Below, piece after piece: positions 6,625 through 64,000 of a stretch of 64,000 nucleotides of DNA. This stretch comes from Chloroflexota bacterium (GTDB lineage: Bacteria; Chloroflexota; Dehalococcoidia; E44-bin15), in the NCBI GenBank assembly GCA_034189695.1, contig JAXHUA010000141.1:3341-67340 (forward strand), given 5' to 3'. The position numbers and the translations under genes are program-made. Positions within the stretch are counted from its first letter, which is position 1; each line of letters starts with the position of its first letter. The notes beneath the pieces were generated by a model. That model did no database searches. It worked only from the letters and a program-made list of their open reading frames with translations, and was not told where the DNA came from.

Positions 6625-6890
6625 AGGAAAAGGCGACGACGGAGACGAGTACGGGGGACACGGCGCTCAGCGAGTCTGGTCCGGTGAGAGCAGACGCGAC
6701 CCTCCCTCTGAAAATCCCTCCCGAGCTGCCAACCGAACGCGGCACGTCAGTGCGCCAGTAGACTTGGCCGGCCTCGTCAGCCGTTATCCCGACGGAGGCA
6801 TGAATGTGCCTTCAACGAGTGCCCCGCACGCGGGGAAGTAGGGTGGTACCGCGGGCTATGAGCTCGTCCCTTGAGGACGGGCTTTTCTTA
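6625..6890 (+). ncRNA. T-box riboswitch leader (Ile-tRNA-responsive, inferred) with intrinsic terminator, upstream of ileS
   Basis: The T-box consensus AAGUAGGGUGGUACCGCGG lies at 6836-6854, directly followed by an 8-bp GC hairpin (6862-6882) and a T-tract (6883-6888). The 5' boundary is approximate. Confidence 0.7.
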
Positions 6891-12639: not shown

Positions 12640-12840
12640 GCCGAAAGAAAACCCCGCCCCCATGAAGGGGCGGGGTTCATTTCCGCGGTGCCACCCTTCT
12701 TGACCCTCTCCCATATGCCGGAGGAAGGGAAAAGGCCATCTCATCAATCAGCTACAAAGGCAAAATCCTCTCTTTGCCCAACTATAGCCTGGACTCTGAT
12801 AACGGTGTCCCTCCGTCAAAGCCTACTCCCCCAACAGGGT
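12640..12840 (-). ncRNA. T-box riboswitch leader with terminator upstream of trpB2 (Trp-tRNA specifier inferred)
   Basis: On the minus strand AGGGUGGCACCGCG (plus-strand coordinates 12684-12697) is followed by the hairpin AACCCCGCCCC/GGGGCGGGGUU (12650-12677) and a U-tract (12642-12649). An AGAGA Stem-I element lies at about 12767. The 5' end is approximate. Confidence 0.65.
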
Positions 12841-13105
12841 TTCGGTTCACAGCTCCCAAGCCCATTCACCCTCTGCGCTGGCATCGGCTCACACCTAACC
12901 CGACTCTCTGAGCCTCGCTGAAGGGCTACTACTCCTGTTCATAGCCTTTGGTTATTCCTGTTCACCGCCGCACCTGGGTCCTGCCCCAGCCTGCGCGGCT
13001 ATGTTAATGAGCAAGTCGCTCGGATTCTACCACAGCCCCACAGCCCCGTCAATACCTGTAGTCCGACTGAGCCCTGTGACCCGCGAACGAGAGGCGGACT
13101 GTGTG

Positions 13106-13876
13106 CTACTCGGCGACGGAGTAGGAAGTCAGCTCGAAGACATCCGCCTCGTCCCAGTAGATGTCCTCGACCTTCTTCACCACGCCCTTGACGTCCGCAG
13201 AGAACCACTCCTCCAGTATGACGTCGCCGCCGCTGTAGGAGGTGACGATCTTGACACAACTGAAGGTCCCTGCCGCCACAGTGACGTCCTCCATGCCCTC
13301 AACCATGACCTCTATGTCGCCGCCCGCACTCAGCAGGCCACCGACATCGATATCCAGATTGCCAGTCCACTCGGCACCCTCGGTGAGAGGCCATTTCGCA
13401 GCAGCGTGCTCATACGTGCCTTCCAGCACAACCACGAGGTCCATTCCCATGGCGGTGATCCCGGTCTCCATCCCCACCATGTCCAGGTCGGCATCGACCA
13501 TCCTGGTCTGCGCCCCCTTCCACTCCGCGTCCAGGGCCATGCCGGACAGGCGCTCCTTGCGCATGATGTTGCTGAAGCTCACCTCCGTGGTGAAGCCATC
13601 TGCACTGGCATCCGTCACCGTCTCGGTGAACTCCGTTGTCTCGCCCTTGTAGGTCACGTCATAGACCCATTGATCGCCGACAGTCAGCGTCGGTGCCTCA
13701 CCACCGGCGGCTGGCTCGGTCGGTGTCGCCTCCTCGGTGGGTGTGGCCTCTTCGGTGGCCGTGGGGGTAGGCGTGGGCTCCTCATCCCCAGCCGGACAGC
13801 ACCCGATCGCGCCGCCCACGAGCAGACTGACCACCACTAGGACTACAATCCCCAATAAGAGCTTTCTGCAGGCCAT
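13106..13876 (-). CDS. hypothetical secreted/lipo-protein with Thr-Pro-Glu-rich linker
   Basis: N-terminal TM/signal peptide with Cys at the cleavage site; PTPTPTATEEATPTEEATPTE low-complexity linker; acidic beta-rich C-domain; no recognisable family. Confidence 0.5.
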   Translation of the reverse strand: MACRKLLLGIVVLVVVSLLVGGAIGCCPAGDEEPTPTPTATEEATPTEEATPTEPAAGGEAPTLTVGDQWVYDVTYKGETTEFTETVTDASADGFTTEVSFSNIMRKERLSGMALDAEWKGAQTRMVDADLDMVGMETGITAMGMDLVVVLEGTYEHAAAKWPLTEGAEWTGNLDIDVGGLLSAGGDIEVMVEGMEDVTVAAGTFSCVKIVTSYSGGDVILEEWFSADVKGVVKKVEDIYWDEADVFELTSYSVAE

Positions 13877-49649: not shown

Positions 49650-51560
<1,911 letters not shown>

Positions 51561-51644: not shown

Positions 51645-52082
51645 TTATAGCACAGAGCCCCGTTCATTGGAAGTTGCCGCCTCTTGACTTAGCTTCCACC
51701 GGACGTAGCTCAGGTAGGGCAAAAGCTCCACCTTCTCTTGCTCGCTCAACTGTGAGAAGGGATCAACCGCACTGGGGATTTCGTCCTTAAGCGAAGCCAC
51801 CAGGTCCATGGGTATGCGGTTGAGGGCTTTGCACAGCTCGACGTAGCGCACCCCATACACACTGGCCCACATAGCCAGCGCTCCGTCCTTGGGCTTCTTC
51901 CACCCCCCTTCTACTTGGTACACGAAACCGGGCGAGACGCTGAGCTTCGTGGCTATGTCCGCCACGCGCGGAATACGTCCACTGACGTCTTCACGCAAGC
52001 GGCTTCTGGCGTCCCGTAACCGGTTGCCAAGCACCGCGTAGGGGCGTCGCTTCCTGGAGCCCGTGTCCAACACGTGGGACAT
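51645..52082 (-). CDS. XRE-family HTH transcriptional regulator (phage-repressor-like) with leaderless start
   Basis: HTH_XRE (LGNRLRDARSRLREDVSGRIPRVADIATKLSVSPGFVYQVEGG). The ATG at 52082 lies immediately downstream of a -10 TAATAAT; the ORF tool extends to TTG 52109. Confidence 0.7.
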   Translation of the reverse strand: MSHVLDTGSRKRRPYAVLGNRLRDARSRLREDVSGRIPRVADIATKLSVSPGFVYQVEGGWKKPKDGALAMWASVYGVRYVELCKALNRIPMDLVASLKDEIPSAVDPFSQLSEQEKVELLPYLSYVRWKLSQEAATSNERGSVL

Positions 52083-52083
52083 T

Positions 52084-52148
52084 ATTACACCAAATTGTGC
52101 AAAAGTCAAGCTTATGTATTGACATTTTCAACCATTTGGTGTAGTATG
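52084..52148. promoter_or_regulatory. divergent promoter/operator region: inverted repeat ACACCAAAT...ATTTGGTGT flanking face-to-face promoters
   Basis: 9-bp arms at 52087-95 and 52134-42. Minus-strand -35 TTGACT/-10 TAATAAT serves the XRE gene. Plus-strand -35 TTGACA (52119-24), 17 nt, TAGTAT (52143-48) points rightward. Confidence 0.5.
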
Positions 52149-52260
52149 TATCCGCAATCCCCATCAGAGTTGTTGTTCTGGGGACACCCCCAGACCCCCG
52201 CCAGAGGGGAGCCTCCTCCAGGCTCCCCTCCGTGATTTGACCGGCGGTTGGGTCTCCGCT

Positions 52261-52977
52261 TCACTTCCTCACCCCGTCCAGGATGAACATGGAGCCGGCG
52301 TATATCTGGCCGATGACAGGCGTGACGGTGATCCTGGATATCCTCGAGGTGGTGTTGTTCCACCTGCCGGTAATGTGGCGTAGAGAGGAGCTTCCCAGGC
52401 CGGCAAAGCTGAGCCACTCCTTTTGCACTGTGGCGTCGCGGTTCTGGATGTAGATGAAGGCAACTCCGTAGTGGAGGTCGTCGAACATACCGAGCACGCC
52501 GAAGGTGTTCGCCTCTACCAGCGTGGTGCGTACACCGCTCGAGTCGGCGAGAAGGTCGCGGAAATCGTAGTTCTGTCCGTCGTCGTCGTTGAAGCGAAGG
52601 CCGGTGGACATGGGGCCGCCGTACGTTGACCTTCTGATGAGGGCGAGAAGCCTGAAGGCGGCGTGGTCCGCGGAGAGTCCCTCGAAGTCCACCGCCGTGG
52701 CGTTCTCGTCGAGGACTCTTGTCTCGATGTGTTCCCAGGGCCAGCCGCGCTGGCTGTGGCCCGAGGTGGAGAAGACGGCGGTCACCACGGCATCGTGCGG
52801 GTTGGACTCGTCCAGGAAGATGACGGCGCAGGGCAGGCCGGGGACCATCGTCGCCGGGGGTATGGCGCGTGACACGGGCACCCCTTCGAGCCACACCGAA
52901 AGACTGCCGGCAACCTGTACTGTGGCGGTGTAGGACTGGGGATCGAAGCCCTGTATGATTCCCTTTCTGATCATCAT
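52261..52977 (-). CDS. phage-like structural protein with N-terminal gpV/gp5-type OB-fold (baseplate spike-like), tentative
   Basis: The N-terminus GIIQGFDPQSYTATVQVAGSLSVWLEGVPV...GLPCAVIFLDESNPHDAVV resembles the Phage_base_V/VgrG OB-fold pattern; 238 aa. Confidence 0.35.
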   Translation of the reverse strand: MMIRKGIIQGFDPQSYTATVQVAGSLSVWLEGVPVSRAIPPATMVPGLPCAVIFLDESNPHDAVVTAVFSTSGHSQRGWPWEHIETRVLDENATAVDFEGLSADHAAFRLLALIRRSTYGGPMSTGLRFNDDDGQNYDFRDLLADSSGVRTTLVEANTFGVLGMFDDLHYGVAFIYIQNRDATVQKEWLSFAGLGSSSLRHITGRWNNTTSRISRITVTPVIGQIYAGSMFILDGVRK

Positions 52978-53019
52978 GGCGCTCCCTTCGTGTTGCTCGG
53001 GGCAAGCCCTTCACATTCC

Positions 53020-54969
53020 TCAGGGCAGGCCCAAGGCCATTCTCAGCGTGTAGTCGGCGGTGGCTGGGCCCCATCCATGCGCGAGGGCCAGGACGCGGCG
53101 TCTTGCGCCGCACAGGCCCGCCTGAGGGGACGTCACGTCGATGACGTCGAACAGGTCCTGGCCGCAGTTCATCGGGGCCAGGAGTTCGCCCCCGAGCCTC
53201 TCCATCTCGGCGTCTCTGATGACTGCAACGCCCCGCTGATGCGCCTTGTCGGTCGTGTCGAGGTTGATGTCCTGTACCTGCACGAGCCGGTCGCAGACAT
53301 CTTCGATGTCGTTCCAGCTCCACTCCTCGGTCATCAGGGCATCGCCGAATACCTGGGCTCGGTTGGCGGAAGCGATCTCCTCCCGGTAGCGCCCGCGAAG
53401 GATGGCATGGTCCGTGCCGTAGCTGTACGTGCTCTCGTCGCTTGCCTGCGGGTTCGTCAGGTAGGCCTTCTGGGCGATGAACAGTATGACGTCGGGGACC
53501 ATGTCGAGCAGGCGCTGCACGGCGGTGAGGGCGCTCTGGCCGGGATGAATGGTGAAGGCGGGCGTCTGGATTATGGCGCTGGAGGGCGAGTACGAGGTGA
53601 GTTCGAGACCGGCCCGGGCGAAGAGGAAGGAGAGAAGCTGGAAGATGTTGCGTGCGCCTGCCTGCCAGGTGAACTGCCTCCTGGCGCGCCAGCGTTCCAG
53701 CAGTGACCACCCATCGCGGGCATGCAGGACGAAGGTGCTGTGCCCGGGCGCGGTGACGTGCTCCCACGCTTCCAGCCAGAAGGCGGGCGCGGTTGCGGAC
53801 TTGGGGCCTTCGGAGGTGTGGTAGCCCAGGCGGAGGACGGCCTCGCTGCCCGGAGTGATTGGGGACTGGGGGTCGTTGTAGCGGCCGTCGTCGTTGCGCA
53901 GGGTGAGTTGAAGGCGCCCCGAGAAAGGCCGGATGGCGGTTGTCAGGGCGATGACGTCGTCGGAGAGCTCTACGGACTGGGGGAGTATTCGGGCGCGCCA
54001 CACGGCGTACGGGGCGCAGAGCCAGGCGTGGGAGGCGTCGTGGGTCAGGACGACGCCGTAGGCGCTGTCGAGGTTGAAGGGCACCGGCTCGCGCCACAGG
54101 CTGGAGATGAAATCGGCGCTGGGGAGTGAATGGCTCCAGTGGGGGCGCGAGTATGGCTCGTCGCCGGCGTAGCGTTCGACGAAGAAGAGCCGGCAGACGT
54201 CGGGGATGTCCAGCGAGGGTGCGAGGTACTCGGTGTACGAGTCGGCGCTGGCGGCGATGACCTCCTGCAGCTCGGACCACGAGTCGGGGGCCATGGTGTA
54301 GCCGTCGCCCAGGACGCACGTCCACAGCCCTGGCCCGCCGGCGGCGTCAACGCCGCTCACCGCCGCGTTCCAGTCTCCAAAATGGACCACGGCGATGCCG
54401 GTCACGGCGGTGAGCGTGCTAGTCCAGGGTGCCGGCTGCTCCCAGACGCCTCCGATGCGGCGGCGCCGGTAGACTGTCGCCCCGTCGGAATACAGGACCA
54501 GCGCATCGCCGTTCGCCTTGAAGCAGGCGGCCACGCGGTAGTCGGCGCAGTCGCCGCCGATGTAGGTCATGTCGATGGGGTCGCCCCAGGTGTCGCCGCA
54601 GGTTGTGCTCTCCCTGCGCCGCAGCCAGCCGGTGCTCTGCACCCAGAAGGCGAGGACCTCATTGCCCCGCGAGCATACGGCCACGTCGGAGCCGGTGTAG
54701 CCCCAGTAGTACCAGTGTGAGAAGTCGCTCTCCGGCCCGGGGTCGGGGACGCGCTGGCGATAGATGCCGCCTCCGCCCCTGAGCCGTACCAGGCTGCCGT
54801 CGCCGGGCATGGTGGCGTCCGTGTGGCAGTCGGGCTCCTCGCCGCTGTACAGCCGCTCCCATCGCAGGCGGGTGGCTGCCCCGAGCTTCTCGACCAGTTC
54901 TACCCTGAGGTACGGCCTGGCCGTGGCGCTCCTCTGGGCGGCCAGCAAAGCGCTCGGCAGTGCTCTCAT
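53020..54969 (-). CDS. large phage-like structural protein (649 aa), beta-rich, possible tail/host-interaction or glycosidase-like protein
   Basis: No Walker motifs; Trp/Tyr/Gly-rich repeats (WYYWGYTGSD, YSDGATVYRRR) suggest a beta-propeller/BNR-like fold; positioned after the head genes. Confidence 0.35.
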   Translation of the reverse strand: MRALPSALLAAQRSATARPYLRVELVEKLGAATRLRWERLYSGEEPDCHTDATMPGDGSLVRLRGGGGIYRQRVPDPGPESDFSHWYYWGYTGSDVAVCSRGNEVLAFWVQSTGWLRRRESTTCGDTWGDPIDMTYIGGDCADYRVAACFKANGDALVLYSDGATVYRRRRIGGVWEQPAPWTSTLTAVTGIAVVHFGDWNAAVSGVDAAGGPGLWTCVLGDGYTMAPDSWSELQEVIAASADSYTEYLAPSLDIPDVCRLFFVERYAGDEPYSRPHWSHSLPSADFISSLWREPVPFNLDSAYGVVLTHDASHAWLCAPYAVWRARILPQSVELSDDVIALTTAIRPFSGRLQLTLRNDDGRYNDPQSPITPGSEAVLRLGYHTSEGPKSATAPAFWLEAWEHVTAPGHSTFVLHARDGWSLLERWRARRQFTWQAGARNIFQLLSFLFARAGLELTSYSPSSAIIQTPAFTIHPGQSALTAVQRLLDMVPDVILFIAQKAYLTNPQASDESTYSYGTDHAILRGRYREEIASANRAQVFGDALMTEEWSWNDIEDVCDRLVQVQDINLDTTDKAHQRGVAVIRDAEMERLGGELLAPMNCGQDLFDVIDVTSPQAGLCGARRRVLALAHGWGPATADYTLRMALGLP

Positions 54970-54978
54970 GTCGCCGCC

Positions 54979-55254
54979 TCAGCGGGAGGCGAGATCTCGA
55001 GCGGCGGCTATCGCCTCGCTGAACTCGCGGCCCACGTTCTCGAACGCCTGCGTTATCTCACGGCGTTGCTCCGGAGTCGTGGTCGGCTCCTCGAGGGCGT
55101 GGTGCATGCTCAGGCCGCACACGCCGAGGGCCACCACGGCCTCGGAGGTCTCCTTGAGCAGCGTCAGGCCCTTGCGCCATTTTGCCCCCAGGAGCCCCGA
55201 CACGATGCCCAGCAGGGGCACGATGATGGTGGCTGCGATCTCCCATGCGCTCAT
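54979..55254 (-). CDS. small membrane protein (holin-like), 91 aa
   Basis: The N-terminal TM (IAATIIVPLLGIVSGLLGA) is followed by a charged C-terminus; a perfect AAGGAGG RBS lies 6 nt upstream of the ATG at 55254. The listed 251-aa ORF is an Arg/Pro-rich artefact upstream. Confidence 0.55.
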   Translation of the reverse strand: MSAWEIAATIIVPLLGIVSGLLGAKWRKGLTLLKETSEAVVALGVCGLSMHHALEEPTTTPEQRREITQAFENVGREFSEAIAAARDLASR

Positions 55255-55335
55255 GTTCTGTTCCTCCTTTCGTTTGGTGCTGGTTGTCGGTTTACGGCCT
55301 TTCGATGGGGCGGTGGGTGATTGAGGTGGGGGCCT

Positions 55336-55423
55336 GGGGCCGTTCATGCCCCTCACTTCGCTCGGGACAAGGTTCGACAGGCCTGCCCTGAGCTTGTCGA
55401 AGGGCTCACCACGAACGGCTGGG
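55336..55423. repeat. 88-bp repeat unit (MITE/REP-like), a perfect inverted copy of 58135-58222
   Basis: GGGGCCGTTCATGCCCCTCACTTCGCTCGGGACAAGGTTCGACAGGCCTGCCCTGAGCTTGTCGAAGGGCTCACCACGAACGGCTGGG. It contains an internal hairpin TTCGACA...TGTCGAA and imperfect terminal inverted repeats CCGTTC/GAACGG. Confidence 0.9.
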
Positions 55424-55493
55424 GTGTGGCCACTGGGCGACGTGGGCCGTTGATGCCTCTGAGTTCGTCCACTGCTGCCTCGCCGTTCATGGG

Positions 55494-55832
55494 TCACACC
55501 AGGGCGAGCAGGGTGTCGGGCACCGGGCGCGCGGCGTGGCGGTAGTGACCTGCCAGGTGCCTGGCCGCGCTGAGTATCCGCTCGGGCGCTGCGCTGACTC
55601 TCTCGCCTCGGTGGCCGCCGGGGGACAGCGCCGCCACCGCGGCCGGCATGCGGTCCCAGTCGACGGTCTTCTCGACGTCGAGCTTCCCCTTGAGGGCGCG
55701 GAAGATGGCCCGGGTGTGGTGTGGCAGCTTCCACGTGTCGGGGTCGTCCGGGTCGCCCACGATGGCGAACGCGTCGCTGGGAAGGCCGTCCTTGGTCGGC
55801 GGGAGACCTTCTTTCACTCTGGCGTTGGACAT
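55494..55832 (-). CDS. hypothetical phage-module protein (112 aa)
   Basis: Conserved position between the connector-like gene and the small membrane protein; no recognisable motif. Confidence 0.35.
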   Translation of the reverse strand: MSNARVKEGLPPTKDGLPSDAFAIVGDPDDPDTWKLPHHTRAIFRALKGKLDVEKTVDWDRMPAAVAALSPGGHRGERVSAAPERILSAARHLAGHYRHAARPVPDTLLALV

Positions 55833-55885
55833 CGCTACCTCCTTTCCAGGCCGGGGCGGAGCTGATGCTCCTCCCTAACCGGATG

Positions 55886-56518
55886 CTATGGCCCTGGGTC
55901 TGTGGAGAGGCCCCTGATGGGTGCCGCCGGAGTGTAGAGGCGGGTGCCCCTCACCTTGCCGCGTCGCCCGAGCCTCCTCAGTTCCTCCCTGAAGTGGGAC
56001 AGCCTTTGCCGTCCCTCGACGGCAAAGCGGTCGGGCGTGTCGATGCCGCCAAGGTTGACCTGGTTGATGGCGAAGGCGGCCCACTCCACCAGGGCATACC
56101 CTTCGGCGCCGTTGGCTATCAGGTCCTCAAAAGGTGGTGGGATGGTCGAGGTGTCGCCGTCGAGGGTGTGGAGCTTGCCGTAGGCGACGCGGCAGTCGGA
56201 GCCGTCGGGCACTTCGTCGCCGAGCACCGTGAGCGTGTCTTTCCAGATGGCGAAGCGCTGGTAGCACGGCGGGAAGCGGCCCACGGGGTACTCGGCCGCC
56301 TGGACGAGGACGCGGTCGGACAGGGTCGAGATGTCGATCTCACGCGAGCCCTCGGTGGTGGGCAGGAGCGCCGTTTGCTCCTGCGGCACCGCCAGCGAGA
56401 ACTCCCGCACCGCGTGGGCGATGTGGCGGTCGAGTTCGTCGTCGCTCCAGCGTCGGTTCTCCGGGTCCTCGTCGTGCAGGTCCCGTCTGACTGTGCAGCG
56501 CATCTCGCTCAGGTCCAT
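55886..56518 (-). CDS. putative head-tail connector/adaptor protein (gp6-like), tentative
   Basis: 210 aa, acidic, helical N-terminus (MDLSEMRCTVRRDLHDEDPENRRWSDDELDRHIAHAVREF), directly downstream of the capsid gene as in HK97-type head modules. Confidence 0.4.
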   Translation of the reverse strand: MDLSEMRCTVRRDLHDEDPENRRWSDDELDRHIAHAVREFSLAVPQEQTALLPTTEGSREIDISTLSDRVLVQAAEYPVGRFPPCYQRFAIWKDTLTVLGDEVPDGSDCRVAYGKLHTLDGDTSTIPPPFEDLIANGAEGYALVEWAAFAINQVNLGGIDTPDRFAVEGRQRLSHFREELRRLGRRGKVRGTRLYTPAAPIRGLSTDPGP

Positions 56519-56529
56519 CTACGCTCTCC

Positions 56530-56660
56530 TTCTGTCTTCACTCCCCCCTCCCTCCCGCTTCCTCCCTCCCGCGAGGGGAGGGAGGAACCGCTCCACACTC
56601 CCTTGAGGGAGAGGGCAAGGCCTGCCCTGAGCTTGTCGAAGGGGTGAGGGTGAAACGCCC
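56530..56660. repeat. composite intergenic repeat: GA/CT palindromes (TTCCTCCCTCCC-GCGA-GGGGAGGGAGGAA; CTCCCTTGAGGGAGAGGG) plus a CCTGCCCTGAGCTTGTCGAAGGGG unit
   Basis: Shares the CTTCGACAAGCTCAGGGC core with copies at 55379, 58083, 58153, 61697, 61789 and a diverged copy at about 17490-17515. Confidence 0.8.
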
Positions 56661-56674
56661 GCATGGGCGAGTCG

Positions 56675-57577
56675 CTACGAGCCAACCGGCCTCACGCCGA
56701 TGAGGCGCGCCAGCTTCACGGTGCTGAAGAGCGCCAGGCCGACGTACCACTTGATGCGCGTCCGCGTGGCGTCCTTGGCCTCGAGCTGGCCGACGCGCTC
56801 CACCTGTATCCCGCCGGGCGCGGTCAACCCGCACAGCGCCCCCTCGCCCATCTGGAAGGCGTAGATGGTGGAACAGTCGGAGCTGGTGCCGACGACCTTG
56901 TTGTCGCCTACCCAGTCGCTGATGGCCACCGGGATGCCGTTGTACAGCTCGATGAACGCGCCCCAGTCGTCGCGCTCCACCTGGAGGTACGAGCCGGCGG
57001 CGCGGGAGAGCTGGTTGAGGCTTCGGCGGGTGCGTCGGCTCATGAGCAGCAGCTCCGGCTTGCCCCCTTTGACCATGTCTACCAGCTCATCGAGCTTGTC
57101 GAGCGTGAGTGCTCCGCCGTTGTCGCCCATGGAGAGCGTCTGGCCGGTGGTCTGGCATATCTTGTCGACGCCCTCGAAGTCCTTGGATGCCCCGGTGCCC
57201 AGCCCGTTGATGAAGGTGTCCTCGAACTCGTGGCGCACCGCCTTGGCGTTCAGCTCGACCACCGCCGCCTCGACGTCCTGGAGATTGGAGCGGGTCGCCT
57301 TGATGAAGTTGTCCACGTCGGCGTTGGCCCCGACGATCTCCAGCCCGGCGGTCACCTGCTCGAGGGTGGGCGCCGTCTCCGCGCTCCACTCCTCGTTCTC
57401 GTCGTACCACGCCACGGTGGGCAGGGTGCTCTCACGGTTGTACGTCAGGCCGTTGCCCACGATCTCAATGAAGGGCAGCTTCTGAAGGACGGGGGAGTCC
57501 TTGATGATGGTCTCGATGACGCCCAGAAGCAGGACGTCGTTCGACAGTTTGGATGCTTCGGCGAGTGTGATAGCCAT
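56675..57577 (-). CDS. putative major capsid protein (HK97-fold-like)
   Basis: 300 aa; translationally coupled (3-nt gap) to an upstream coiled-coil scaffold-like protein; C-terminal region alpha/beta-rich, like MCPs. The family assignment rests on context and composition only. Confidence 0.5.
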   Translation of the reverse strand: MAITLAEASKLSNDVLLLGVIETIIKDSPVLQKLPFIEIVGNGLTYNRESTLPTVAWYDENEEWSAETAPTLEQVTAGLEIVGANADVDNFIKATRSNLQDVEAAVVELNAKAVRHEFEDTFINGLGTGASKDFEGVDKICQTTGQTLSMGDNGGALTLDKLDELVDMVKGGKPELLLMSRRTRRSLNQLSRAAGSYLQVERDDWGAFIELYNGIPVAISDWVGDNKVVGTSSDCSTIYAFQMGEGALCGLTAPGGIQVERVGQLEAKDATRTRIKWYVGLALFSTVKLARLIGVRPVGS

Positions 57578-57580
57578 CGG

Positions 57581-58051
57581 CTATGCCTCCTTTCCCAGTG
57601 CGTAGTGGATCTTCTCCCTGGGGGACATGGCGGACAGATCGGGGACGGCGCGCTCCGGGGCGCCGGCCGGCACGTGCGTCGCCTTGAGGTCTTCCTCCAG
57701 TGTTTGCCGCACCCGCCCCGCCATATCCCGTGCCCGGTCGAGTGACGCGTCGATGTCGGCGATGGTCGCGCCGGCGACCATCTCCTCCGGGATCTGCGGG
57801 TTGGCGGCGACGAGCGCCGCGCGGTAGCTGGCCACCGCCTCATGCAGCGTTTCGGTCGCCGCCGCCAGCTCGGCGTCCCTCTCATCGAGCGCCGCCTTCA
57901 TCGAGGTCAGCTCCTGCTGGCCGGCGTCGTTCGCCGCCAGCGCCTCGGCAAGCTGCGCCTGGAGTTCGCCGAGCCTGGCGTCTCTCTCCCCAAGCTGCGC
58001 TTTCAAGCCCTCCAGTTCCGTCTGTACCATTGCAGTCTCTTCCTCGTTCAT
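57581..58051 (-). CDS. putative scaffolding protein (coiled-coil)
   Basis: 156 aa, strongly helical Ala/Glu/Leu-rich (LEGLKAQLGERDARLGELQAQLAEALAAND...), immediately upstream of the capsid gene. Confidence 0.5.
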   Translation of the reverse strand: MNEEETAMVQTELEGLKAQLGERDARLGELQAQLAEALAANDAGQQELTSMKAALDERDAELAAATETLHEAVASYRAALVAANPQIPEEMVAGATIADIDASLDRARDMAGRVRQTLEEDLKATHVPAGAPERAVPDLSAMSPREKIHYALGKEA

Positions 58052-58059
58052 TCCTGGCC

Positions 58060-58340
58060 TCCTTGAAAGTCTTCGCTTTCACCCCTTCGACAAGCTCAGG
58101 GCGAACCGTTGGCAAGGTCGTGGTGAGCCGCCGGCCCAGCCGTTCGTGGTGAGCCCTTCGACAAGCTCAGGGCAGGCCTGTCGAACCTTGTCCCGAGCGA
58201 AGTGAGGGGCATGAACGGCCCCGGGCGAACGCTTGGCACTCACCCTAGCCCTCTCCCGTCAAGGGAGAGGGAATGTGCTGCCGCGAGCCGCGGGAGGTGC
58301 AACTGTCCTCCCTCCCCCAGAAGGAGGGGGATGCCTCCTT
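58060..58340. repeat. repeat-dense intergenic region (two CCCTTCGACAAGCTCAGGGC units, a CCCTCTCCC-GTCAA-GGGAGAGGG hairpin, and a CCTCCCTCCCCC/GGAGGGGG hairpin)
   Basis: Direct inspection. The units recur at 61683-61860 and 56530-56660. Confidence 0.8.
58135..58222. repeat. 88-bp repeat unit, reverse-complement copy of 55336-55423 (100% identity)
   Basis: Exact reverse complement over 88 bp. Together the two copies bracket 55424-58134 (scaffold, capsid and two small head genes). Confidence 0.9.
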
Positions 58341-58395
58341 CACTCGCCAGCGTGCCACGCACTCTCACGCTCCCCGCTGGCGACTGCACCGAGGA

Positions 58396-58411
58396 TAGAA
58401 CACATGTTCTA
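58396..58411. promoter_or_regulatory. operator-like palindrome TAGAAC-ACAT-GTTCTA, 26 nt upstream of the -35 of the R-M gene promoter
   Basis: 6-bp perfect arms. The same TAGAAC-N4-GTTCTA motif occurs at 63497-63512 and nowhere else in the window. The downstream promoter is TTGACA (58438-43)-17-TACCAT (58461-66), followed by an AGGAGG RBS. Confidence 0.55.
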
Positions 58412-58492
58412 CGCGCGTCAAGCCAGAAATGTCACGGTTGACATGCTTGAGAGCGGCCACTACCATTGTGGTGCTCGCATAGGAGGCGTTGG

Positions 58493-61400
58493 ATGGCAGC
58501 GGACCTCAAGCCGCTCCGGGAGTACGCACGCGCGGTGGCGCGGGAACTGGGGGTGGGCAACACCACGGAGCACAGCCACCGGCCGGCGCTGAAGGGCCTG
58601 CTCGAGGCGCTCGACGGCAGGGTCGTGGCGACCAATGAGCCGAAGCGCATAGCCTGTGGTGCCCCAGACTTCGTGGTCACACGTGGTGCCTCGGTGGTGG
58701 GCTACATCGAGGGCAAGGACGTCGGCAGCAGCCTCGACGACGCCGAGCGTTCGGAGCAGATGGAGCGCTACCTCCCATCGCTGAGCAACCTGGTGCTCAC
58801 CGACTACCTCAGCTTCCGCTGGTACGTCGACGGCCACCTGAGGCTATCCGCCCGCCTGGGCCGGGCGTCACTGTCGGGCAAGGTGCTCGTGGACAGGGAC
58901 GGCCTCAACGCCGTGGCCGATCTGCTCGCCTCCTTCCTGTGCCACACCGCCGAGGGCGTCGGCACACCGAGGGAGCTGGCCGAGCGCCTGGCGCGCCTGG
59001 CCCGCCTGGCCCGCGGCCTTATCGCCAACGCGATTGCCAGCGAGGCCGAGGCCGGCCCCCTCCACGGCCAACTGGCCGCGTTCCGTGACAACCTCATTCC
59101 CGACCTGAGCCCGGAGCGGTTCGCCGACATGTATGCCCAGACCATGGCCTACGGCCTGTTCGCCGCGCGCTGCGCCGCGGACGGCGGCTGCTTCACTCGC
59201 CAGAACGCCGGGTACCTCCTGCCCCGGACCAACCCCTTCCTGCGCAACCTCTTCGGCGACATCGCCGGCCCGAACCTCGACGACCGAGTCGCCTGGCTCG
59301 CCGACGACCTGGCGCAGGTGCTGGCGCAGGCCGACATGGACGCCGTGCTGCGCGATTTCGGGCGGAGGACGGCCACCGAGGACCCGGTGGTGCATTTCTA
59401 TGAGACCTTCCTGGGCCGGTACGACCCGAGGGAGCGCCAGGTACGCGGGGTGTACTACACCCCCGAGCCGGTGGTGTCCTACATCGTGCGCTCGGTCGAC
59501 CACCTGCTCAGGACGCGCTTCAACAGCCCCGAGGGCCTGGCCGACCCCCGCGTCCTCATCCTCGACCCCGCTGTGGGCACCGGCACCTTCCTCTACAGCA
59601 TAGTCCGGAAGATCCACGAGGCCTTCGTGCGCCAGGGGCAGGGTGGCCTCTGGAACGACTACGTGGCCGACCGTCTCCTGCGGCGCCTGTTCGGCTTCGA
59701 GCTGCTGATGGCCCCCTACGCCGTGGCCCACCTCAAGCTGGGGCTGCTGCTCCGCGAGACCGGCTACCGGTTCCAGGCCGACCAGCGCCTTGGCGTATAC
59801 CTGACCAACACCCTGGAGGAGGCCTTCACCCGCTCCCAGCTCCTCGCCGGGTTCAACCGCTACATCGTTGACGAGGCCAACGCCGCCGCGCGCATCAAGA
59901 AGGAGAAGCCCATCATGGTGGTGCTGGGCAATCCACCCTACGCGGGCTTCTCCGCCAACGCGAGCACGCGCATGGTGAAGGAGGGCAGGAGCAAGCGGAT
60001 GAAGCGTGACTTGACCTGGATTGGCCGCCTCATCCAGGACTACAAGCAGGTCGATGGCGGGCCGCTGGGAGAGAGGAACCCCAAGTGGTTGCAGGACGAC
60101 TACGTCAAGTTCATCCGCTTCGGCCAGTGGCGCATCGAGCAGACCGGCCACGGCATCCTCGCGTTCATCACTAACCACGGCTACCTGGACAACCCGACCT
60201 TCCGCGGCATGCGCCAGTCGCTGATGAATACGTTCAGTGACATCTACGTCCTGGATCTCCACGGCAACGTGAAGAAGCGCGAGAGCGCGCCCGACGGCGG
60301 CCCCGACCAGAACGTGTTCGATATCCAGCAGGGGGTCGCCATCGGCATCTTCGTCAGGGAGCCTGGCCGGGAGAGGCCCGGGCGGGTGCAGCATGCCGAC
60401 CTTTGGGGGGCGCGTGGTGACTGGCCCGATCCCGAAGAGGGGACGAAGTACCGCGCGCTCGCGGAGACGGACGTCTCAACGACCTCTTGGGAGCCCTTGG
60501 CCCCCGCGACACCGGCCTATTTCTTCGTGCCCCGGGACGAGGTGCTGGCTGCCGAGTACCATCAGGGGTGGAAGGTAACGGACATCTTTCCGCTCCACAG
60601 CGCGGGCATCGTCACCGCGCGCGACAGCCTCGCGGTGGCATGGAGCGCGCAGGAAATGTGGCACACACTTGCGGACTTCGCTTCGCTGGAACCCGAGGCC
60701 GCGCGAGAGAAGTACAGGCTCGGTGCCGACGCCCGGGACTGGAGCGTGTCAATGGCCCAGGCGGACGTCACGGCCAGCGGTCCCACCCCCGACCGCGTGG
60801 TACCCCTGCTGTATCGGCCCTTCGACGTCAGGTTCACCTACTACACCGGGCGCTCCCGTGGCTTCCAGTGCATGCCGCGCCCAGACGTCATGCGCCACAT
60901 GCTGGGCGGCGCCAATGTTGCGCTCATCACTGTTCGCAAGGTGCCCCGCGGCCAGGCGGCGGGCTACTTCTCTGCTGCGCGCTTTCCGGCGAGCAATGGG
61001 GCGATACGCTCCGACAACCAGAGTATCGACTACGTTATCCCGCTGTACGCTTGGGCCGCACAAGGCGAGATGCAGTTTCAGGGAGAGCCGCGCCGGGCCA
61101 ATTTGAACCCGGCCTTCAGCAACGCCGTTTCGGACGCGCTAGCGCTGCGCTTCGTGGCCCACGGCAGCGGTGACCTGGAGCAGTCTTTCGGCCCGGAGGA
61201 CGTGTTCCACTACATCTACGCAGTGCTCCACTCGCCGGCGTACCGCAGCCGCTACGCGGACTTCCTCAAGACCGACTTCCCGCGCGTTCCCCTGACCTCG
61301 GAAAGGGGGCTCTTCGCGGCGCTCGCCGCCAAGGGCGCCCAGCTGGTCGCGCTGCACCTCATGGAGTCGCCCCTCCCGGCCACCCTCATCACCGGCTATC

Positions 61401-61681
61401 CGGTGGCGGGCACCGACATAGTGGAAAGGGTGAGCTACGACGCCGCGACCGGCCGCGTCCACATCAACAAGACGCAGTACTTCGATGGCGTGCCCCGCGA
61501 CGTCTGGGAGTTCCACGTAGGCGGCTACCAGGTGTGCCATAAATGGCTCAAGGACCGCAAGGGACGCAAGCTGGCCTACGATGACAAGACCCACTACCAG
61601 CGGGTTGTGGTGGCGCTGAACGAAACCGTACGCCTGATGGCTGAGATCGACGCCCTCATCCCGTCGTGGCCCATCGACTAG
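58493..61681 (+). CDS. Type IIG (MmeI-like) restriction-modification fusion enzyme: N-terminal PD-ExK nuclease, N6-adenine methyltransferase and C-terminal specificity domain
   Basis: The N-terminus has PDFVV...GYIEGKD (a D...ExK nuclease motif like MmeI). MTase motif I is LDPAVGTGTFL; motif IV is VLGNPPYAGFS (NPPY). The C-terminal HVGGYQVCHKWLKDRKGRKL...ETVRLMAEIDALI block is the TRD/coupler seen in MmeI/Type ISP C-termini. There is no helicase. ATG 58493 follows an AGGAGG RBS; the ORF tool opens at TTG 58466. Confidence 0.75.
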   Translation: MAADLKPLREYARAVARELGVGNTTEHSHRPALKGLLEALDGRVVATNEPKRIACGAPDFVVTRGASVVGYIEGKDVGSSLDDAERSEQMERYLPSLSNLVLTDYLSFRWYVDGHLRLSARLGRASLSGKVLVDRDGLNAVADLLASFLCHTAEGVGTPRELAERLARLARLARGLIANAIASEAEAGPLHGQLAAFRDNLIPDLSPERFADMYAQTMAYGLFAARCAADGGCFTRQNAGYLLPRTNPFLRNLFGDIAGPNLDDRVAWLADDLAQVLAQADMDAVLRDFGRRTATEDPVVHFYETFLGRYDPRERQVRGVYYTPEPVVSYIVRSVDHLLRTRFNSPEGLADPRVLILDPAVGTGTFLYSIVRKIHEAFVRQGQGGLWNDYVADRLLRRLFGFELLMAPYAVAHLKLGLLLRETGYRFQADQRLGVYLTNTLEEAFTRSQLLAGFNRYIVDEANAAARIKKEKPIMVVLGNPPYAGFSANASTRMVKEGRSKRMKRDLTWIGRLIQDYKQVDGGPLGERNPKWLQDDYVKFIRFGQWRIEQTGHGILAFITNHGYLDNPTFRGMRQSLMNTFSDIYVLDLHGNVKKRESAPDGGPDQNVFDIQQGVAIGIFVREPGRERPGRVQHADLWGARGDWPDPEEGTKYRALAETDVSTTSWEPLAPATPAYFFVPRDEVLAAEYHQGWKVTDIFPLHSAGIVTARDSLAVAWSAQEMWHTLADFASLEPEAAREKYRLGADARDWSVSMAQADVTASGPTPDRVVPLLYRPFDVRFTYYTGRSRGFQCMPRPDVMRHMLGGANVALITVRKVPRGQAAGYFSAARFPASNGAIRSDNQSIDYVIPLYAWAAQGEMQFQGEPRRANLNPAFSNAVSDALALRFVAHGSGDLEQSFGPEDVFHYIYAVLHSPAYRSRYADFLKTDFPRVPLTSERGLFAALAAKGAQLVALHLMESPLPATLITGYPVAGTDIVERVSYDAATGRVHINKTQYFDGVPRDVWEFHVGGYQVCHKWLKDRKGRKLAYDDKTHYQRVVVALNETVRLMAEIDALIPSWPID

Positions 61682-61682
61682 G

Positions 61683-61870
61683 CGGCCTCACCCTCACCCC
61701 TTCGACAAGCTCAGGGCTGGCCTTGCCCTCTCCTCGCCACGGTCGAGTCTTCGACCCTCGAGGGAGAGGGGATGTGCCCCCGCACCGTTCACCCTTCGAC
61801 AGGCTCAGGGCGAACGGTGATGGCCGCCGTTCGCGGTGAGGCCTTCGCCCCGGCTGAGGGCAGGCCCTCA
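61683..61870. repeat. repeat-dense intergenic region between the R-M gene and the portal gene (units CTCACCCTCACCCCTTCGACAAGCTCAGGGC, CCCTCTCC...GGGAGAGGG, CACCCTTCGACAGGCTCAGGGCGAACGG)
   Basis: Same repeat family as at 55.3, 56.6 and 58.1 kb. Confidence 0.8.
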
Positions 61871-63238
61871 TCCACCCTCTGCCCCGCTCTGGCGGGCGTT
61901 GAGGTCGCGGTTCATCTGGAGGATGCGCTTTCGCTCCTCCAGCCAGGCGTCGAACTCGAGTCCGGGGCTGTCCACCCCGAGGTACTCCATGGCGCGGCGG
62001 CGCGAGTGGACGCCGCTCTGGATGAGCGCCACCTCGGTGGCCGCCTCCCGCTCGCGGTCGCGGGGCAGCACCGGTCCCCACACGATGCGGTGCGACAGGC
62101 GGCCGAAGCGCTCGCCGGTGAAGCGCTCAATGAGCGCCAGCACCATCTCGTTGCGCCGGCGGTAGGCCGCAGTGCGCACCAGGCGCTTGCGGGCCACCTT
62201 CTGGAGCAGCGGCTGCATCTCGATCTCCAGCGCCACCCCTGACAGGTCGCGGCCGGCGGTGCCGAAGGCGGCGCGGGGGGACTCGGAGATGTCGTGCAGC
62301 GTGCGGTACAGTAGGTCGATGTAGTCGATGTGGAGCCGCACCCCACCTCCCTGGAGCAGGTCGAGCAGGTACGCCCGCGCCTCCTCGGGAATGTTCCACA
62401 CCGCCCCGGGCTGCACCGCGATGTCCTGCGACGACTCCACGTTCTCCAGCACGGCGATGGGGTTGCCCGAAAGCTCCAAGATGCGTGAGAGCTGCGACAG
62501 CGCCCGGTTCAGCTCGCGCTGCGCCTCCATCAGCACTGGAATGTCCGACACGCCCCAGAAACGCTTCGGCTGGCACAGGTTGGGGAATATGACGAACGGG
62601 ATGAAGCCATATGGGTTGGGCGCCGTCGTGATGCACTCGTCGTCGAGCCACAGCTCGAAGGCCCTGTCGGTCCACACCTCCGCCACCCACGCCGTCCTTC
62701 CTGACGGCCTGCTGCCGTGGAGCAACTCCACCTCGTCGGCGCTGAGCTGGTAGCGAGAGGCGACCCGGTACACCGTGCCGACATCGTCTGGCAGCCACCA
62801 GGCGTAGAGCCCCTGCACGTCGGGCGCGGTCACCCGGACGCGCCCGTCGGCCACGTCCCAGGTCACCTTGTATGCTGCGTCGCCGAGGACAGCGCAGTCG
62901 GTCTCGGTGTCGAAGTCGAGGGCTTCCAGGTTGTTGTCGCGGTACACCTGGTGCAGCGCCGCCTCCGCCGCCACGGCGCGCTGCCGCGCGTCGTCACCGT
63001 CCTCGACGGGATCGACGGTGAAGCCCATGCCGGACATGAGGTACGAGGTCGTCTTGTCGACGATGGCCTTGGCGTAGTTGAAGGTGAGGTGCTTCTCGCC
63101 CCTGGTGGCCCGCGCCGGCCACTGCGCGCCGTTGTAGAAGGCCAGGCTCCCGGCATAGCGCTTCATCCGGTCGCGGTCCGTGCGCGCGAGCTGCTGCGGC
63201 AGGGCTGGACCGTTCATCCTCCACCCCCCGCGGCGCAC
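61868..63238 (-). CDS. phage portal protein (SPP1/HK97-like portal family)
   Basis: 456 aa; N-terminal FNYAKAIVDKTTSYLMG-type portal motif, central GFIPFVIFPN, and an acidic C-terminus. The start is GTG 63238 or ATG 63217, overlapping the upstream HTH gene stop. Confidence 0.6.
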   Translation of the reverse strand: MRRGGWRMNGPALPQQLARTDRDRMKRYAGSLAFYNGAQWPARATRGEKHLTFNYAKAIVDKTTSYLMSGMGFTVDPVEDGDDARQRAVAAEAALHQVYRDNNLEALDFDTETDCAVLGDAAYKVTWDVADGRVRVTAPDVQGLYAWWLPDDVGTVYRVASRYQLSADEVELLHGSRPSGRTAWVAEVWTDRAFELWLDDECITTAPNPYGFIPFVIFPNLCQPKRFWGVSDIPVLMEAQRELNRALSQLSRILELSGNPIAVLENVESSQDIAVQPGAVWNIPEEARAYLLDLLQGGGVRLHIDYIDLLYRTLHDISESPRAAFGTAGRDLSGVALEIEMQPLLQKVARKRLVRTAAYRRRNEMVLALIERFTGERFGRLSHRIVWGPVLPRDREREAATEVALIQSGVHSRRRAMEYLGVDSPGLEFDAWLEERKRILQMNRDLNARQSGAEGG

Positions 63239-63486
63239 GCCTGCGGTCTGCGTCCGGCGATGACGCGATAGACGGTGCGCCGGCTCACGCCGAAGCGCCG
63301 CGCCAGCTCGTGCACCGCCACGCCATCACCATAAAGCCGCACCATCCGCTCGTTCCTCAGCTCCTTGGCGGTCTGCTTGCCCGGTCGGTCGTAGCGGCAG
63401 GTCGCCAGGGGGCAGTTGAGGCAGGAGGGGAAGAGGTCGCACCCCTCGTCGCGGTAGGCGCAATGCTCGGGCACGAAGTCGTCCAT
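63214..63486 (-). CDS. small Cys-rich (CX6CX5CX2CX4C) HTH DNA-binding protein; candidate controller or terminase-small-subunit-like protein
   Basis: 90 aa; five Cys near the N-terminus in HCAYRDEGCDLFPSCLNCPLATC; a C-terminal HTH ELARRFGVSRRTVYRVI. It is the first gene of the portal operon, and its mRNA appears leaderless. Confidence 0.55.
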   Translation of the reverse strand: MDDFVPEHCAYRDEGCDLFPSCLNCPLATCRYDRPGKQTAKELRNERMVRLYGDGVAVHELARRFGVSRRTVYRVIAGRRPQACAAGGGG

Positions 63487-63492
63487 GCCCCG

Positions 63493-63521
63493 ATGATAGA
63501 ACTAATGTTCTATACTGTCAA
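63493..63521 (-). promoter_or_regulatory. minus-strand promoter TTGACA-17-TATCAT for the HTH-portal operon, with the TAGAAC-TAAT-GTTCTA palindrome inside the spacer
   Basis: The -35 is the reverse complement of 63516-21 and the -10 the reverse complement of 63493-98. The palindrome at 63497-63512 overlaps the -10 and spacer. The ATG at 63486 is 6 nt downstream of the -10, which implies a leaderless transcript. Confidence 0.55.
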
Positions 63522-63635
63522 TGGTATTCTGTCACTGACGCGCTCCACCCCGGGCTTTCCTCTGCTGTTGCGAGCGGAGCCGCAGGCTTCGCGAAGCGAT
63601 CTCAGCGGCGGGCGGCAGGGAGCAGTGCACGGTGG

Positions 63636-63766
63636 TTGACGCGGCGGGCGTCCTGTGGTATTCTTACTGCTCCAGCAAGCGGGGGCGAAGAAGCGGGGCC
63701 TTCATTTGGGCGCTTGGGCTCCGTGGAGTCAGTAGCGAAACCGACCGCAGGGTCGGTTTCTTTTTT
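63636..63766 (+). ncRNA. candidate small RNA or attenuator leader: an extended -10 promoter, an approximately 95-nt transcript, and a strong intrinsic terminator
   Basis: TTGACG (63636-41), 17 nt, a TG-n-TATTCT extended -10 (63656-64); then the hairpin GAAACCGACC-GCAG-GGTCGGTTTC (63737-60) plus a TTTTTT tract (63761-66). There is no ORF of 30 aa or more in between. Confidence 0.35.
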
Positions 63767-63772
63767 ACTCAA

Positions 63773-64000
63773 GTGACCGCAGGCATCAGGCGACGTTTAG
63801 GCTATCTCGGGCCGGCGGCAGTGGTGATGGCGCTGGTCATGTCGCTCGTGCTGCTCACCGTGGTGCGAGCGGCTTCCGGCGTATGGCCGGACTGCAACTT
63901 CCAGTGCACCGCCAACGATGTCACCGTGACCCGGGCGTGGCTGGGCAATGCGACCGGCGGTGACCTGGAGCAGTGCGTGCCCGGGCAGCCCAACGGCTCG
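63773..64000 (+). CDS. 5' part of a gene encoding a secreted/membrane protein (signal-peptide-like N-terminus), running off the window
   Basis: In-frame from GTG 63773 or ATG 63826 with no stop before the window end: RRRLGYLGPAAVVMALVMSLVLLTVVRAASG, then a Cys-containing mature region. Confidence 0.3.
   Translation, partial: MTAGIRRRLGYLGPAAVVMALVMSLVLLTVVRAASGVWPDCNFQCTANDVTVTRAWLGNATGGDLEQCVPGQPNGS

Follow-up and report, generated by a model that had tools for sequence, protein, structure and literature searches.

Directly beside gyrB, at about 52.2–63.5 kb of a 64,000-nt stretch of contig JAXHUA010000141.1 (Chloroflexota bacterium, Dehalococcoidia; the whole stretch is hereafter the window, and coordinates are window positions), lies an island of phage particle genes. 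On balance, we consider it to be a domesticated derivative of tiny temperate phages that resembles a gene transfer agent (GTA) and whose terminase is encoded elsewhere. A domesticated GTA-like module was among the options raised by an earlier sequence-only reading of this DNA, and it is the best supported of them. More tentatively, in a proposal that may well prove too broad, Dehalococcoidia could carry an undescribed GTA family that arose from ~13.8 kb phages with a tube-less hub-spike tail, is fixed at several chromosomal sites, sometimes has separate terminase and particle loci, and serves as a landing pad for defense genes; the gyrB island would then be a particle locus supplied with terminase in trans. 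In the literature searched, we found no such element described for Dehalococcoidia or for Chloroflexota as a whole.

Gene content of the island

All eleven open reading frames (ORFs) that the sequence-only reading had assigned to the island were recovered at the same positions. The genes run on the minus strand from 63486 to 51645, with the restriction-modification (R-M) gene alone on the plus strand, and gyrB (49650–51557) lies beyond the spike/154-aa end, where it had been placed before. The features are as follows.

63214..63486, minus strand: first gene of the cluster, putative 90-aa regulator with a four-cysteine N-terminal domain and a helix-turn-helix (HTH) (HTH_7, 9.4e-10; Mor-like/late-activator PHROGs)
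61868..63238, minus strand: portal, 456 aa from GTG (SPP1_portal, 1.7e-16; phrog_64, 8.8e-32)
58466..61681, plus strand: Type IIG R-M enzyme, 1071 aa (PADLOC REase_MTase_IIG PDLC03610, E 5.3e-285)
57581..58051, minus strand: probable scaffolding protein, 156 aa, coiled coil (weak Phage_scaffold and phrog_194 matches, position)
56675..57577, minus strand: HK97-type major capsid protein, 300 aa (phrog_212, 3.4e-66; Phage_capsid, 9.3e-12; SU10_MCP, 8e-7)
55886..56518, minus strand: head-to-tail adaptor, 210 aa (Pfam SU10_adaptor, 1.7e-6, 29 bits)
55494..55832, minus strand: conserved 112-aa protein, p112 (invariant WKLPHH and HLAxHY motifs)
55332..55423, no strand assigned: REP/MITE-like (repetitive extragenic palindrome/miniature inverted-repeat transposable element) hairpin repeat, with an inverted copy at 58135–58226
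54979..55254, minus strand: small membrane protein, 91 aa, with one N-terminal hydrophobic helix (from sequence)
53020..54969, minus strand: tail hub, 649 aa, six-bladed sialidase-like beta-propeller plus Mu gp44/T4 gp27-type domain
52261..52977, minus strand: central spike/receptor-binding protein, 238 aa, N-terminal oligonucleotide/oligosaccharide-binding (OB) fold and variable beta-sandwich C-terminal domain
51645..52109, minus strand: putative HTH (xre) protein, 154 aa, between the spike gene and gyrB (HTH_31, E 0.007)

The earlier portal and capsid calls held up with the profile matches listed above, and the protein once described as connector-like is an adaptor (29 bits, above the cut-off of 27) that is conserved among relatives. 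Portal homologs with 58–79% identity occur in 32 GTDB species, nearly all of them Dehalococcoidia, and the HTH stop codon overlaps an alternative portal ATG (63217) as ATGA. The profile match of the 156-aa protein is weak (19 bits against a cut-off of 35); together with its conserved C-terminal 70 residues and its place before the capsid gene, both kept in relatives, this points to a scaffold. Only 3 nt separate its stop from the capsid start. The top cultured-phage match of the capsid protein has 42% identity.

The 649-aa protein is a tail hub, in which a sialidase-like beta-propeller is fused to a Mu gp44/T4 gp27-type domain (domain order deduced from secondary structure). Its profile had no match among PDB sequences, and the hub had none among 50,697 deposited phage genomes. 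For the 238-aa spike, the predicted structure is of moderate quality (pLDDT 68.9), and the closest match of the N-terminal OB-fold is to the Mu gp45 puncturing device, followed by the phi92, pyocin R2 and P2 gpV spikes, so that an earlier guess of a gpV-like OB-fold was well founded. The spike tip is a lectin-like beta-sandwich. Among homologs, the first 70 residues are conserved and the C-terminal beta-sandwich is swapped; a conserved N-terminal part joined to an exchanged C-terminal part is a pattern typical of receptor-binding proteins. The island differs from the hub/spike pairs of Mu (gp44/gp45) and P2 (gpD/gpV) in that no sheath, tube, wedge or tape-measure genes surround its copies, its hub carries the propeller, and its spike ends in a lectin-like beta-sandwich rather than a beta-helical needle. 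The former statement that the island lacks a tail thus stands for the tube, sheath and tape measure, for which no gene was recognized, and fails for the tail tip, since both hub and spike are encoded. Its description as a head module only had to be abandoned for the same reason, and integrase-bearing relatives of ~13.8 kb carry the same virion genes, likewise with no recognized tube or tape measure.

Missing functions and island borders

Searches with tblastn, using 17+ family members, found no homolog of the small or large terminase subunit (TerS, TerL) in the 64 kb of the window. No integrase homolog and no tRNA were found in the same 64 kb, and no att repeats or flanking direct repeats at the island; integration at a tRNA was accordingly discarded. 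These results agree with the sequence-only reading that terminase, integrase and replication genes are missing and that this is not a complete prophage.

Comparison contigs, mostly from metagenome-assembled genomes (MAGs) or metagenomes, are referred to by L-numbers (e.g., L001, L115). An exact 58-mer taken at the window end had no hit in JGI metagenomes, and looking up the exact capsid protein sequence returned none either. A terminase just past the window end had to be considered, as TerS-TerL lies upstream of HTH-portal in many relatives, sometimes beyond an opposite-strand immunoglobulin (Ig)-domain gene. Public contig L113, identical to window 62441–64000, adds 1938 nt beyond the window end. 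To the right of the window, where the sequence-only reading had thought terminase or integrase genes might lie, this 1.9-kb extension contains no terminase; it holds instead the remainder of a PKD/CLIPPER/HYR gene that starts at 63826 and runs off the window end (610-aa secreted product with a C-terminal anchor), followed by repeat-rich noncoding DNA. A cyclic di-GMP (c-di-GMP)-II riboswitch (RF01786, 65.4 bits; 63672–63755, plus strand) lies directly 5' of this gene. The pair looks like a c-di-GMP-controlled adhesin, and the riboswitch belongs to this neighboring gene, not to the island. The same pair is kept in L115.

The nearest population, L115/L116 (identical to L001/L033; capsid 92% and gyrB 87% identical to the window), has the order PKD/CLIPPER/HYR with riboswitch, thiolase, ChsH2-like gene, repeat-rich spacer, HTH, portal through spike, xre, gyrB and PAS/GGDEF. 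The genes upstream of its HTH-portal encode acyl-CoA dehydrogenase, thiolase and ChsH2-like proteins, and neither a terminase nor an integrase is among them. The PKD proteins of the two populations are orthologous (61% identity over the part compared), and four independent assemblies (L115–L118) support the junctions in this lineage. A terminase just beyond the window was rejected on these grounds: none in the extension, host metabolic genes in L115/L116, and orthologous PKD genes and riboswitches. The island is hence complete at ~52.2–63.5 kb, with host genes on both sides. Host orthologs bracket it both here and in L115/L116; that no terminase adjoins it is a genuine feature of the locus and does not stem from where the window stops. 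A 154-aa ORF 5' of the HTH gene in L115 was examined as a TerS remnant and rejected as a spurious ORF over repeat elements.

Inheritance and selection

The lineage sampled best is a sister lineage whose clusters lie between rnhA and rpsU. There, module and flank protein distances are correlated with r = 0.93 and a slope of 0.99, and for L008–L010 synonymous divergence (dS) is 0.48–0.92 for the module and 0.38–0.75 for the flanking pheS, pheT and yqeY (pheS 0.75 and pheT 0.73; TerL 0.70, portal 0.69 and hub 0.85). The ratio of nonsynonymous to synonymous divergence (dN/dS; Nei-Gojobori method without codon-bias correction) is 0.03–0.23 for the module in this lineage, where conservation is higher for the capsid protein than for PheS. 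Module G+C content follows that of the host from 0.47 to 0.67, mostly 1–5 points over the flanks.

Between the window and L001, dN/dS is 0.06–0.30 and all ORFs are intact; the capsid protein shares 92% identity with its counterpart in the nearest species (dN/dS 0.06). The G+C content at third codon positions of island genes is near that of host genes. Together, the dS, distance and dN/dS values are signatures that indicate a host-maintained element rather than a resident prophage. Vertical inheritance with the host is supported by dS and protein distances in the rnhA/rpsU lineage, and by conserved flanks only in the lineage of the window.

Chromosomal sites and split gene sets

The family is widespread: the capsid protein matches 71 IMG/VR contigs, the hub at least 697 protein clusters, and TerL at least 461 metagenome loci. 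Its usual gene order is TerS, TerL, (HTH), portal, scaffold, capsid, adaptor, (p112), small membrane protein, hub and spike. Integrase-less clusters sit at a few fixed sites between housekeeping genes. At one site, TerS through spike is preceded by rnhA and a Zn-ribbon gene and followed by rpsU, yqeY and a radical SAM gene; the downstream flank was found in 7 GTDB species and the upstream flank in at least 25 further metagenome contigs, two of them >600 kb. At others, the cluster is followed by moaC-moaA-ham1-fbp or by FG-GAP-ruvB, and in the lineage of the window it lies between PKD and gyrB. Here gyrB (81–87% identical) adjoins the spike end in four populations (the window, L001/L115, L104/L106 and L107); in L107, a 427-aa gene replaces the spike and xre genes. 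The sequence-only reading had itself held that synteny of the block in relatives would speak against its proposal. Synteny with gyrB was indeed found across related species, and it counts against the satellite form of that proposal.

Gene sets are also split between loci. In L147 (628-kb contig; 7601–9368) and L151 (7622–9383), an intact TerS-TerL pair stands alone after rnhA/Zn-ribbon and directly before a row of host genes (hom, a Macro-domain gene, tsaD and corC); the surrounding 8 kb holds no further phage gene. The complete chromosome L020 has TerS to scaffold and then a major facilitator superfamily transporter and a transposase, with no capsid or hub genes in the run. Conversely, the 1.35-Mb contig L108 has scaffold to hub directly after host genes, without portal or terminase; in L200, which shares its moaC flank, the gene set is complete. 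The portal-to-spike form of the window, which lacks a terminase, is a further arrangement of this kind.

Many of the 'viral' IMG/VR entries in our comparison (L030–L103) are short pieces of the cluster. All contigs there with ≥50% capsid identity are ≤20 kb, and entries of this family may be host loci rather than viruses. If they are, virus-detection pipelines are classing host chromosomal loci as viral; 71 IMG/VR entries gave a match.

Accessory genes vary as well. In the rnhA/rpsU lineage, TerL and HTH-portal are separated by one or two large Ig/TIG-domain genes in the opposite orientation (L003, 6797–9235, minus strand, with equivalents in L004, L008, L010, L011, L016 and many of L120–L199). 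They hold the same position as the PKD gene of the window; homology between the two proteins was considered and rejected, as they share no sequence similarity. In some lineages, further genes vary between capsid and adaptor (in L003, 13426–14112, plus strand, together with 12953–13417); the 228-aa product in L003 appears LamG/concanavalin-like by eye and may be a decoration or fiber protein.

Integrase-bearing relatives

Some family members carry an integrase (L034, L183, L119, L055/56, L072 and L077). The tyrosine integrase gene lies just upstream of TerS in several contigs, accompanied by an HNH gene in L034 and L183, and in L183 host genes lie to the left of the integrase. One of them, L119 (Logan SRR12623521 contig, 13,822 nt), encodes hub, spike, small and Zn-finger genes, integrase, an excisionase (Xis)-like HTH_17 protein, TerS, TerL, portal, scaffold and capsid. 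This order reads as a circular permutation of the whole element, and L119 may represent a complete ~13.8 kb temperate tailed phage with no recognized tube or tape-measure gene, among the smallest known. Of the integrase-bearing contigs, the two that reach that far (L119 and L183) carry the hub, and L119 also the spike.

These mini-phages (L119, L034 and L183) share with the island portal, scaffold, capsid and adaptor in the same order, with capsid identity to the window of up to 90%; p112 was detected in L034 only, and L034 ends before the hub. They differ in having a tyrosine integrase, Xis-like HTH_17 or HNH, Zn-finger early genes and TerS/TerL. Neighbor-joining trees place the clade of the window, L001/L002 and L105 beside L034 and L119, with L107 elsewhere; both trees group L034 and L119 with the window's clade, the portal tree placing them as sister to it. 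If the mobile versions are functional, the family would span active mini-phages and their fixed derivatives, and the hub-spike set would be all the tail that they need.

The Type IIG gene and its insertion site

The earlier call of an embedded Type IIG R-M enzyme proved correct. The protein covers the full-length PADLOC model (E 5.3e-285), matches Type_ISP_C (1.5e-89) and N6_Mtase, and is related to the solved DrdV structure 7lo5 (8e-48). Nuclease, N6-adenine methyltransferase and specificity domains are joined in one chain, and the translation contains PD..ExK ('APDF...EGK'), 'DPAVGTGTF' and 'GNPPYAG' (NPPY) motifs. As judged from its sequence, the enzyme has the PD-(D/E)xK nuclease, gamma-class N6-adenine methyltransferase and target-recognition domain of its class.

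No homolog of this gene was present in any of the related loci examined (absent from 199/199). At the same portal-scaffold junction, L105 has an HD-domain gene (weak dGTPase-like match), L110 a Cas4-like nuclease and a gene of unrecognized type, L201 a TSP3-repeat protein gene and L200 a 227-aa gene, while L001 has no more than a 140-nt spacer. The junction appears to be a recurrent site for cargo genes at which the R-M gene is one option among several. This favors a cargo hotspot over the functional coupling implied by a capsid-coupled defense island, an option that the sequence-only reading had raised.

The motif CCCTGAGCTTGTCGAAGGG occurs in six core copies in the 64 kb, all in island spacers and none in the other 51 kb, with two copies on either side of the R-M gene. 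A 92-nt repeat pair (55332–55423 and 58135–58226) is 99% complementary and folds as a long hairpin (−47.6 kcal/mol), and shorter copies lie at 56608–56653, 58072–58102, 61687–61733 and 61781–61811. These are dispersed REP/MITE-like hairpins. They had been taken for shared operator motifs of a regulated unit; because the same repeat core also lies in the host flanks of relatives, they are not island-specific operators. Contigs of relatives frequently end close to these repeats.

Proposed origin and competing explanations

In the scenario we favor, the island would descend from ~14 kb temperate tailed phages of Dehalococcoidia that became chromosomally fixed and vertically inherited. It would have kept what looks like every gene needed for a particle (HTH, portal, scaffold, capsid, adaptor, p112, membrane protein, propeller-hub and spike) and lost the integrase, excisionase and early genes; the adjacent TerS/TerL would also have gone in the lineage of the window. 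Under the control of the host or of the HTH protein, small capsids with a tube-less hub-spike tail would form, and a terminase from another locus would fill them with DNA. We infer that this DNA would be mostly host DNA, as in a GTA, because the element cannot excise. The Type IIG gene would be an independent cargo at the portal-scaffold junction.

Several points weigh against this scenario. As the 13.8-kb relatives suggest, a head sized for such an element (~14 kb) could hold the 10–12.5 kb cluster, and the classical GTA trait of a head unable to take up the whole cluster may thus be lacking here. No TerS/TerL was seen for the source genome (64 kb plus the 1.9-kb extension searched), and the halves of split sets were seen on different contigs. 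In the lineage of the window, dS is saturated (gyrB 1.45–1.49), and equal divergence time is therefore rigorous for the rnhA/rpsU lineage only. L107 is gyrB-adjacent yet falls in a different capsid clade, and gyrB could be a recurrent integration site rather than mark one ancestral insertion. The island has a G+C content of 0.67 against 0.62 for the rest of the window, 5 points higher.

An alternative that we regard as unlikely, though worth weighing, is a helper-dependent interference or defense module, whose capsid, portal and tail genes act on infecting ~14 kb mini-phages. As a non-mobile satellite, it could poison virion assembly or capture the phage terminase to package host DNA, with the R-M enzyme as a second barrier. 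The locus has no terminase, yet all its other particle genes are under purifying selection; its capsid is 90% identical to that of L034 despite a 20-point G+C gap (portal 72%), which is compatible with selection to keep interacting; and some junction cargos are of defense type (Type IIG R-M, weak dGTPase-like, Cas4-like nuclease). However, integrase-less lineages with adjacent TerS/TerL are equally conserved, so that dependence on a helper terminase is not general; other cargos are not defense genes (TSP3-repeat protein, unrecognized genes); and no sign of co-infection was seen. We also know of no defense system that consists of a full virion gene set.

The missing terminase and integrase, repeats built up in the spacers, inserted foreign genes and the survival of only pieces in some relatives would all suit an inert, slowly decaying prophage remnant that lost its integrase-terminase arm. 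We consider this improbable: all nine ORFs are intact across populations whose gyrB proteins differ by 13–19%, the dN/dS values in both lineages (0.06–0.30 and 0.03–0.23) and a capsid more conserved than PheS indicate constraint, and at least 697 sequence clusters retain an unbroken hub ORF of 2 kb. A mobile satellite similar to capsid-forming phage-inducible chromosomal islands (cf-PICIs), or an ordinary prophage continuing past the window, would fit the ~12 kb size, the head genes, the lack of a visible terminase and the existence of integrase-bearing relatives, but has very little chance of being right given host orthologs on both sides in the window and L115/L116, no integrase, att repeats or tRNA, the gyrB synteny across populations and, for a satellite, the presence of hub and spike, whereas cf-PICIs by definition are without tail genes.

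Comparison with known systems

Known GTAs include RcGTA of Rhodobacter capsulatus, BaGTA, Dd1, VSH-1 and VTA. Like them, the island is a phage-derived structural cluster without integrase or replication genes, chromosomally fixed, co-diverging with its host, under purifying selection and, in some genomes, with a gene set split over loci. Its G+C content is slightly over that of the flanks, a trend that GTAs reportedly show. It differs from them in its host phylum, Chloroflexota (Dehalococcoidia); in its unrelated ancestry (SU10-type adaptor and capsid families); in its hub-spike tail with no recognized tube, tape measure or Dit; in a terminase outside the locus; in having close integrase-bearing phage relatives that are extant; and in a head capacity possibly not below cluster size. 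Set beside definitions of GTAs and viriforms in two sources (PMC9662315 and PMC10883770), the island has caudovirus-derived structural genes in the host chromosome (portal, capsid, adaptor, hub and spike) and no integrase, excision, replication or lysogeny module (64 kb, with host orthologs on both flanks); a terminase of its own was found neither in the window nor in the 1.9-kb extension, and in sister lineages the terminase lies beside the cluster or alone. The integrase, Xis/HNH and TerS/TerL of an intact mini-phage prophage are absent from the window and from L115/L116.

The sequence-only reading had also proposed a capsid-forming satellite, which does not agree with the lack of integrase and att sites, the hub and spike, or the synteny at gyrB. 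The cf-PICIs reportedly have an integrase and att sites, modules for replication and regulation, and a TerS/TerL pair of their own, and no tail genes. The island resembles them in size (10–15 kb), in having its own portal, capsid and connector genes and in accessory or defense cargo, and differs in lacking an integrase and a terminase, in its hub and spike and in vertical inheritance; no integrase, direct repeats or tRNA accompany its fixed position, and it has tail genes and no TerS/TerL of its own. Defense hotspots have reportedly been found in P2-like prophages and P4-like satellites. The portal-scaffold junction is like these in that one fixed position holds different, often defense-type, genes per genome, and unlike them in that the carrier is non-mobile and vertically inherited and not all cargos are recognizable defense genes.

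Dehalococcoidia include organohalide-respiring bacteria used in bioremediation and abundant sediment lineages; their genomes are small, genetic tools are lacking and their gene exchange is poorly understood. A particle gene set under selection in hundreds of populations would be a testable candidate for DNA exchange among them. If our interpretation is correct, this would be a new, independent GTA origin with living integrase-bearing relatives, a rare case in which domestication steps (integrase loss, terminase separation and cargo gain) could be traced. Judging by the mini-phages, a tailed virion might work with no more than adaptor, hub and spike.

Regulator, small proteins and other features

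Four cysteines of the 90-aa HTH protein (Cys16, 22, 25 and 30; C-X5-C-X2-C-X4-C) do not vary among 58 distinct homologs, and its gene precedes the portal gene in most relatives. The protein probably acts as a regulator. The four invariant cysteines suggest a metal or iron-sulfur site, which could link expression to redox state.

Among the family's small proteins, p112 is the one conserved best (mean column identity of 70% over 17 relatives); it had no match in Pfam, PHROGs or PDB. The 91-aa membrane protein, for which the sequence-only reading's label of holin-like is tentative, is conserved in the gyrB lineage only; at its position, other lineages have an unlike 89-aa protein with two transmembrane segments. 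Also confined to the gyrB lineage is the 154-aa putative HTH protein (59–63% conserved), which has only a weak HTH_31 match (E 0.007) and whose gene has a G+C content of 0.576, lower than island and host genes; whether it belongs to the cluster is uncertain. Its homolog in L001 (8929–9368) appears frameshifted in the GTDB MAG and intact in L115–L118 of the same population; the frameshift is probably an assembly error.

Two further kinds of RNA element were noted outside the island. In L115 and L116 (18937–19029, minus strand) and in L104 (8506–8598, minus strand), the two large PAS/GGDEF-type genes that lie downstream of gyrB have a c-di-GMP-I-GGC riboswitch between them, with no match reported at the equivalent place in the window. 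Two T-box leaders (6627–6874, plus strand, and 12663–12951, minus strand) are each located 5' of large ORFs in the window, with scores of 94 and 93.5 bits against a gathering score of 93.

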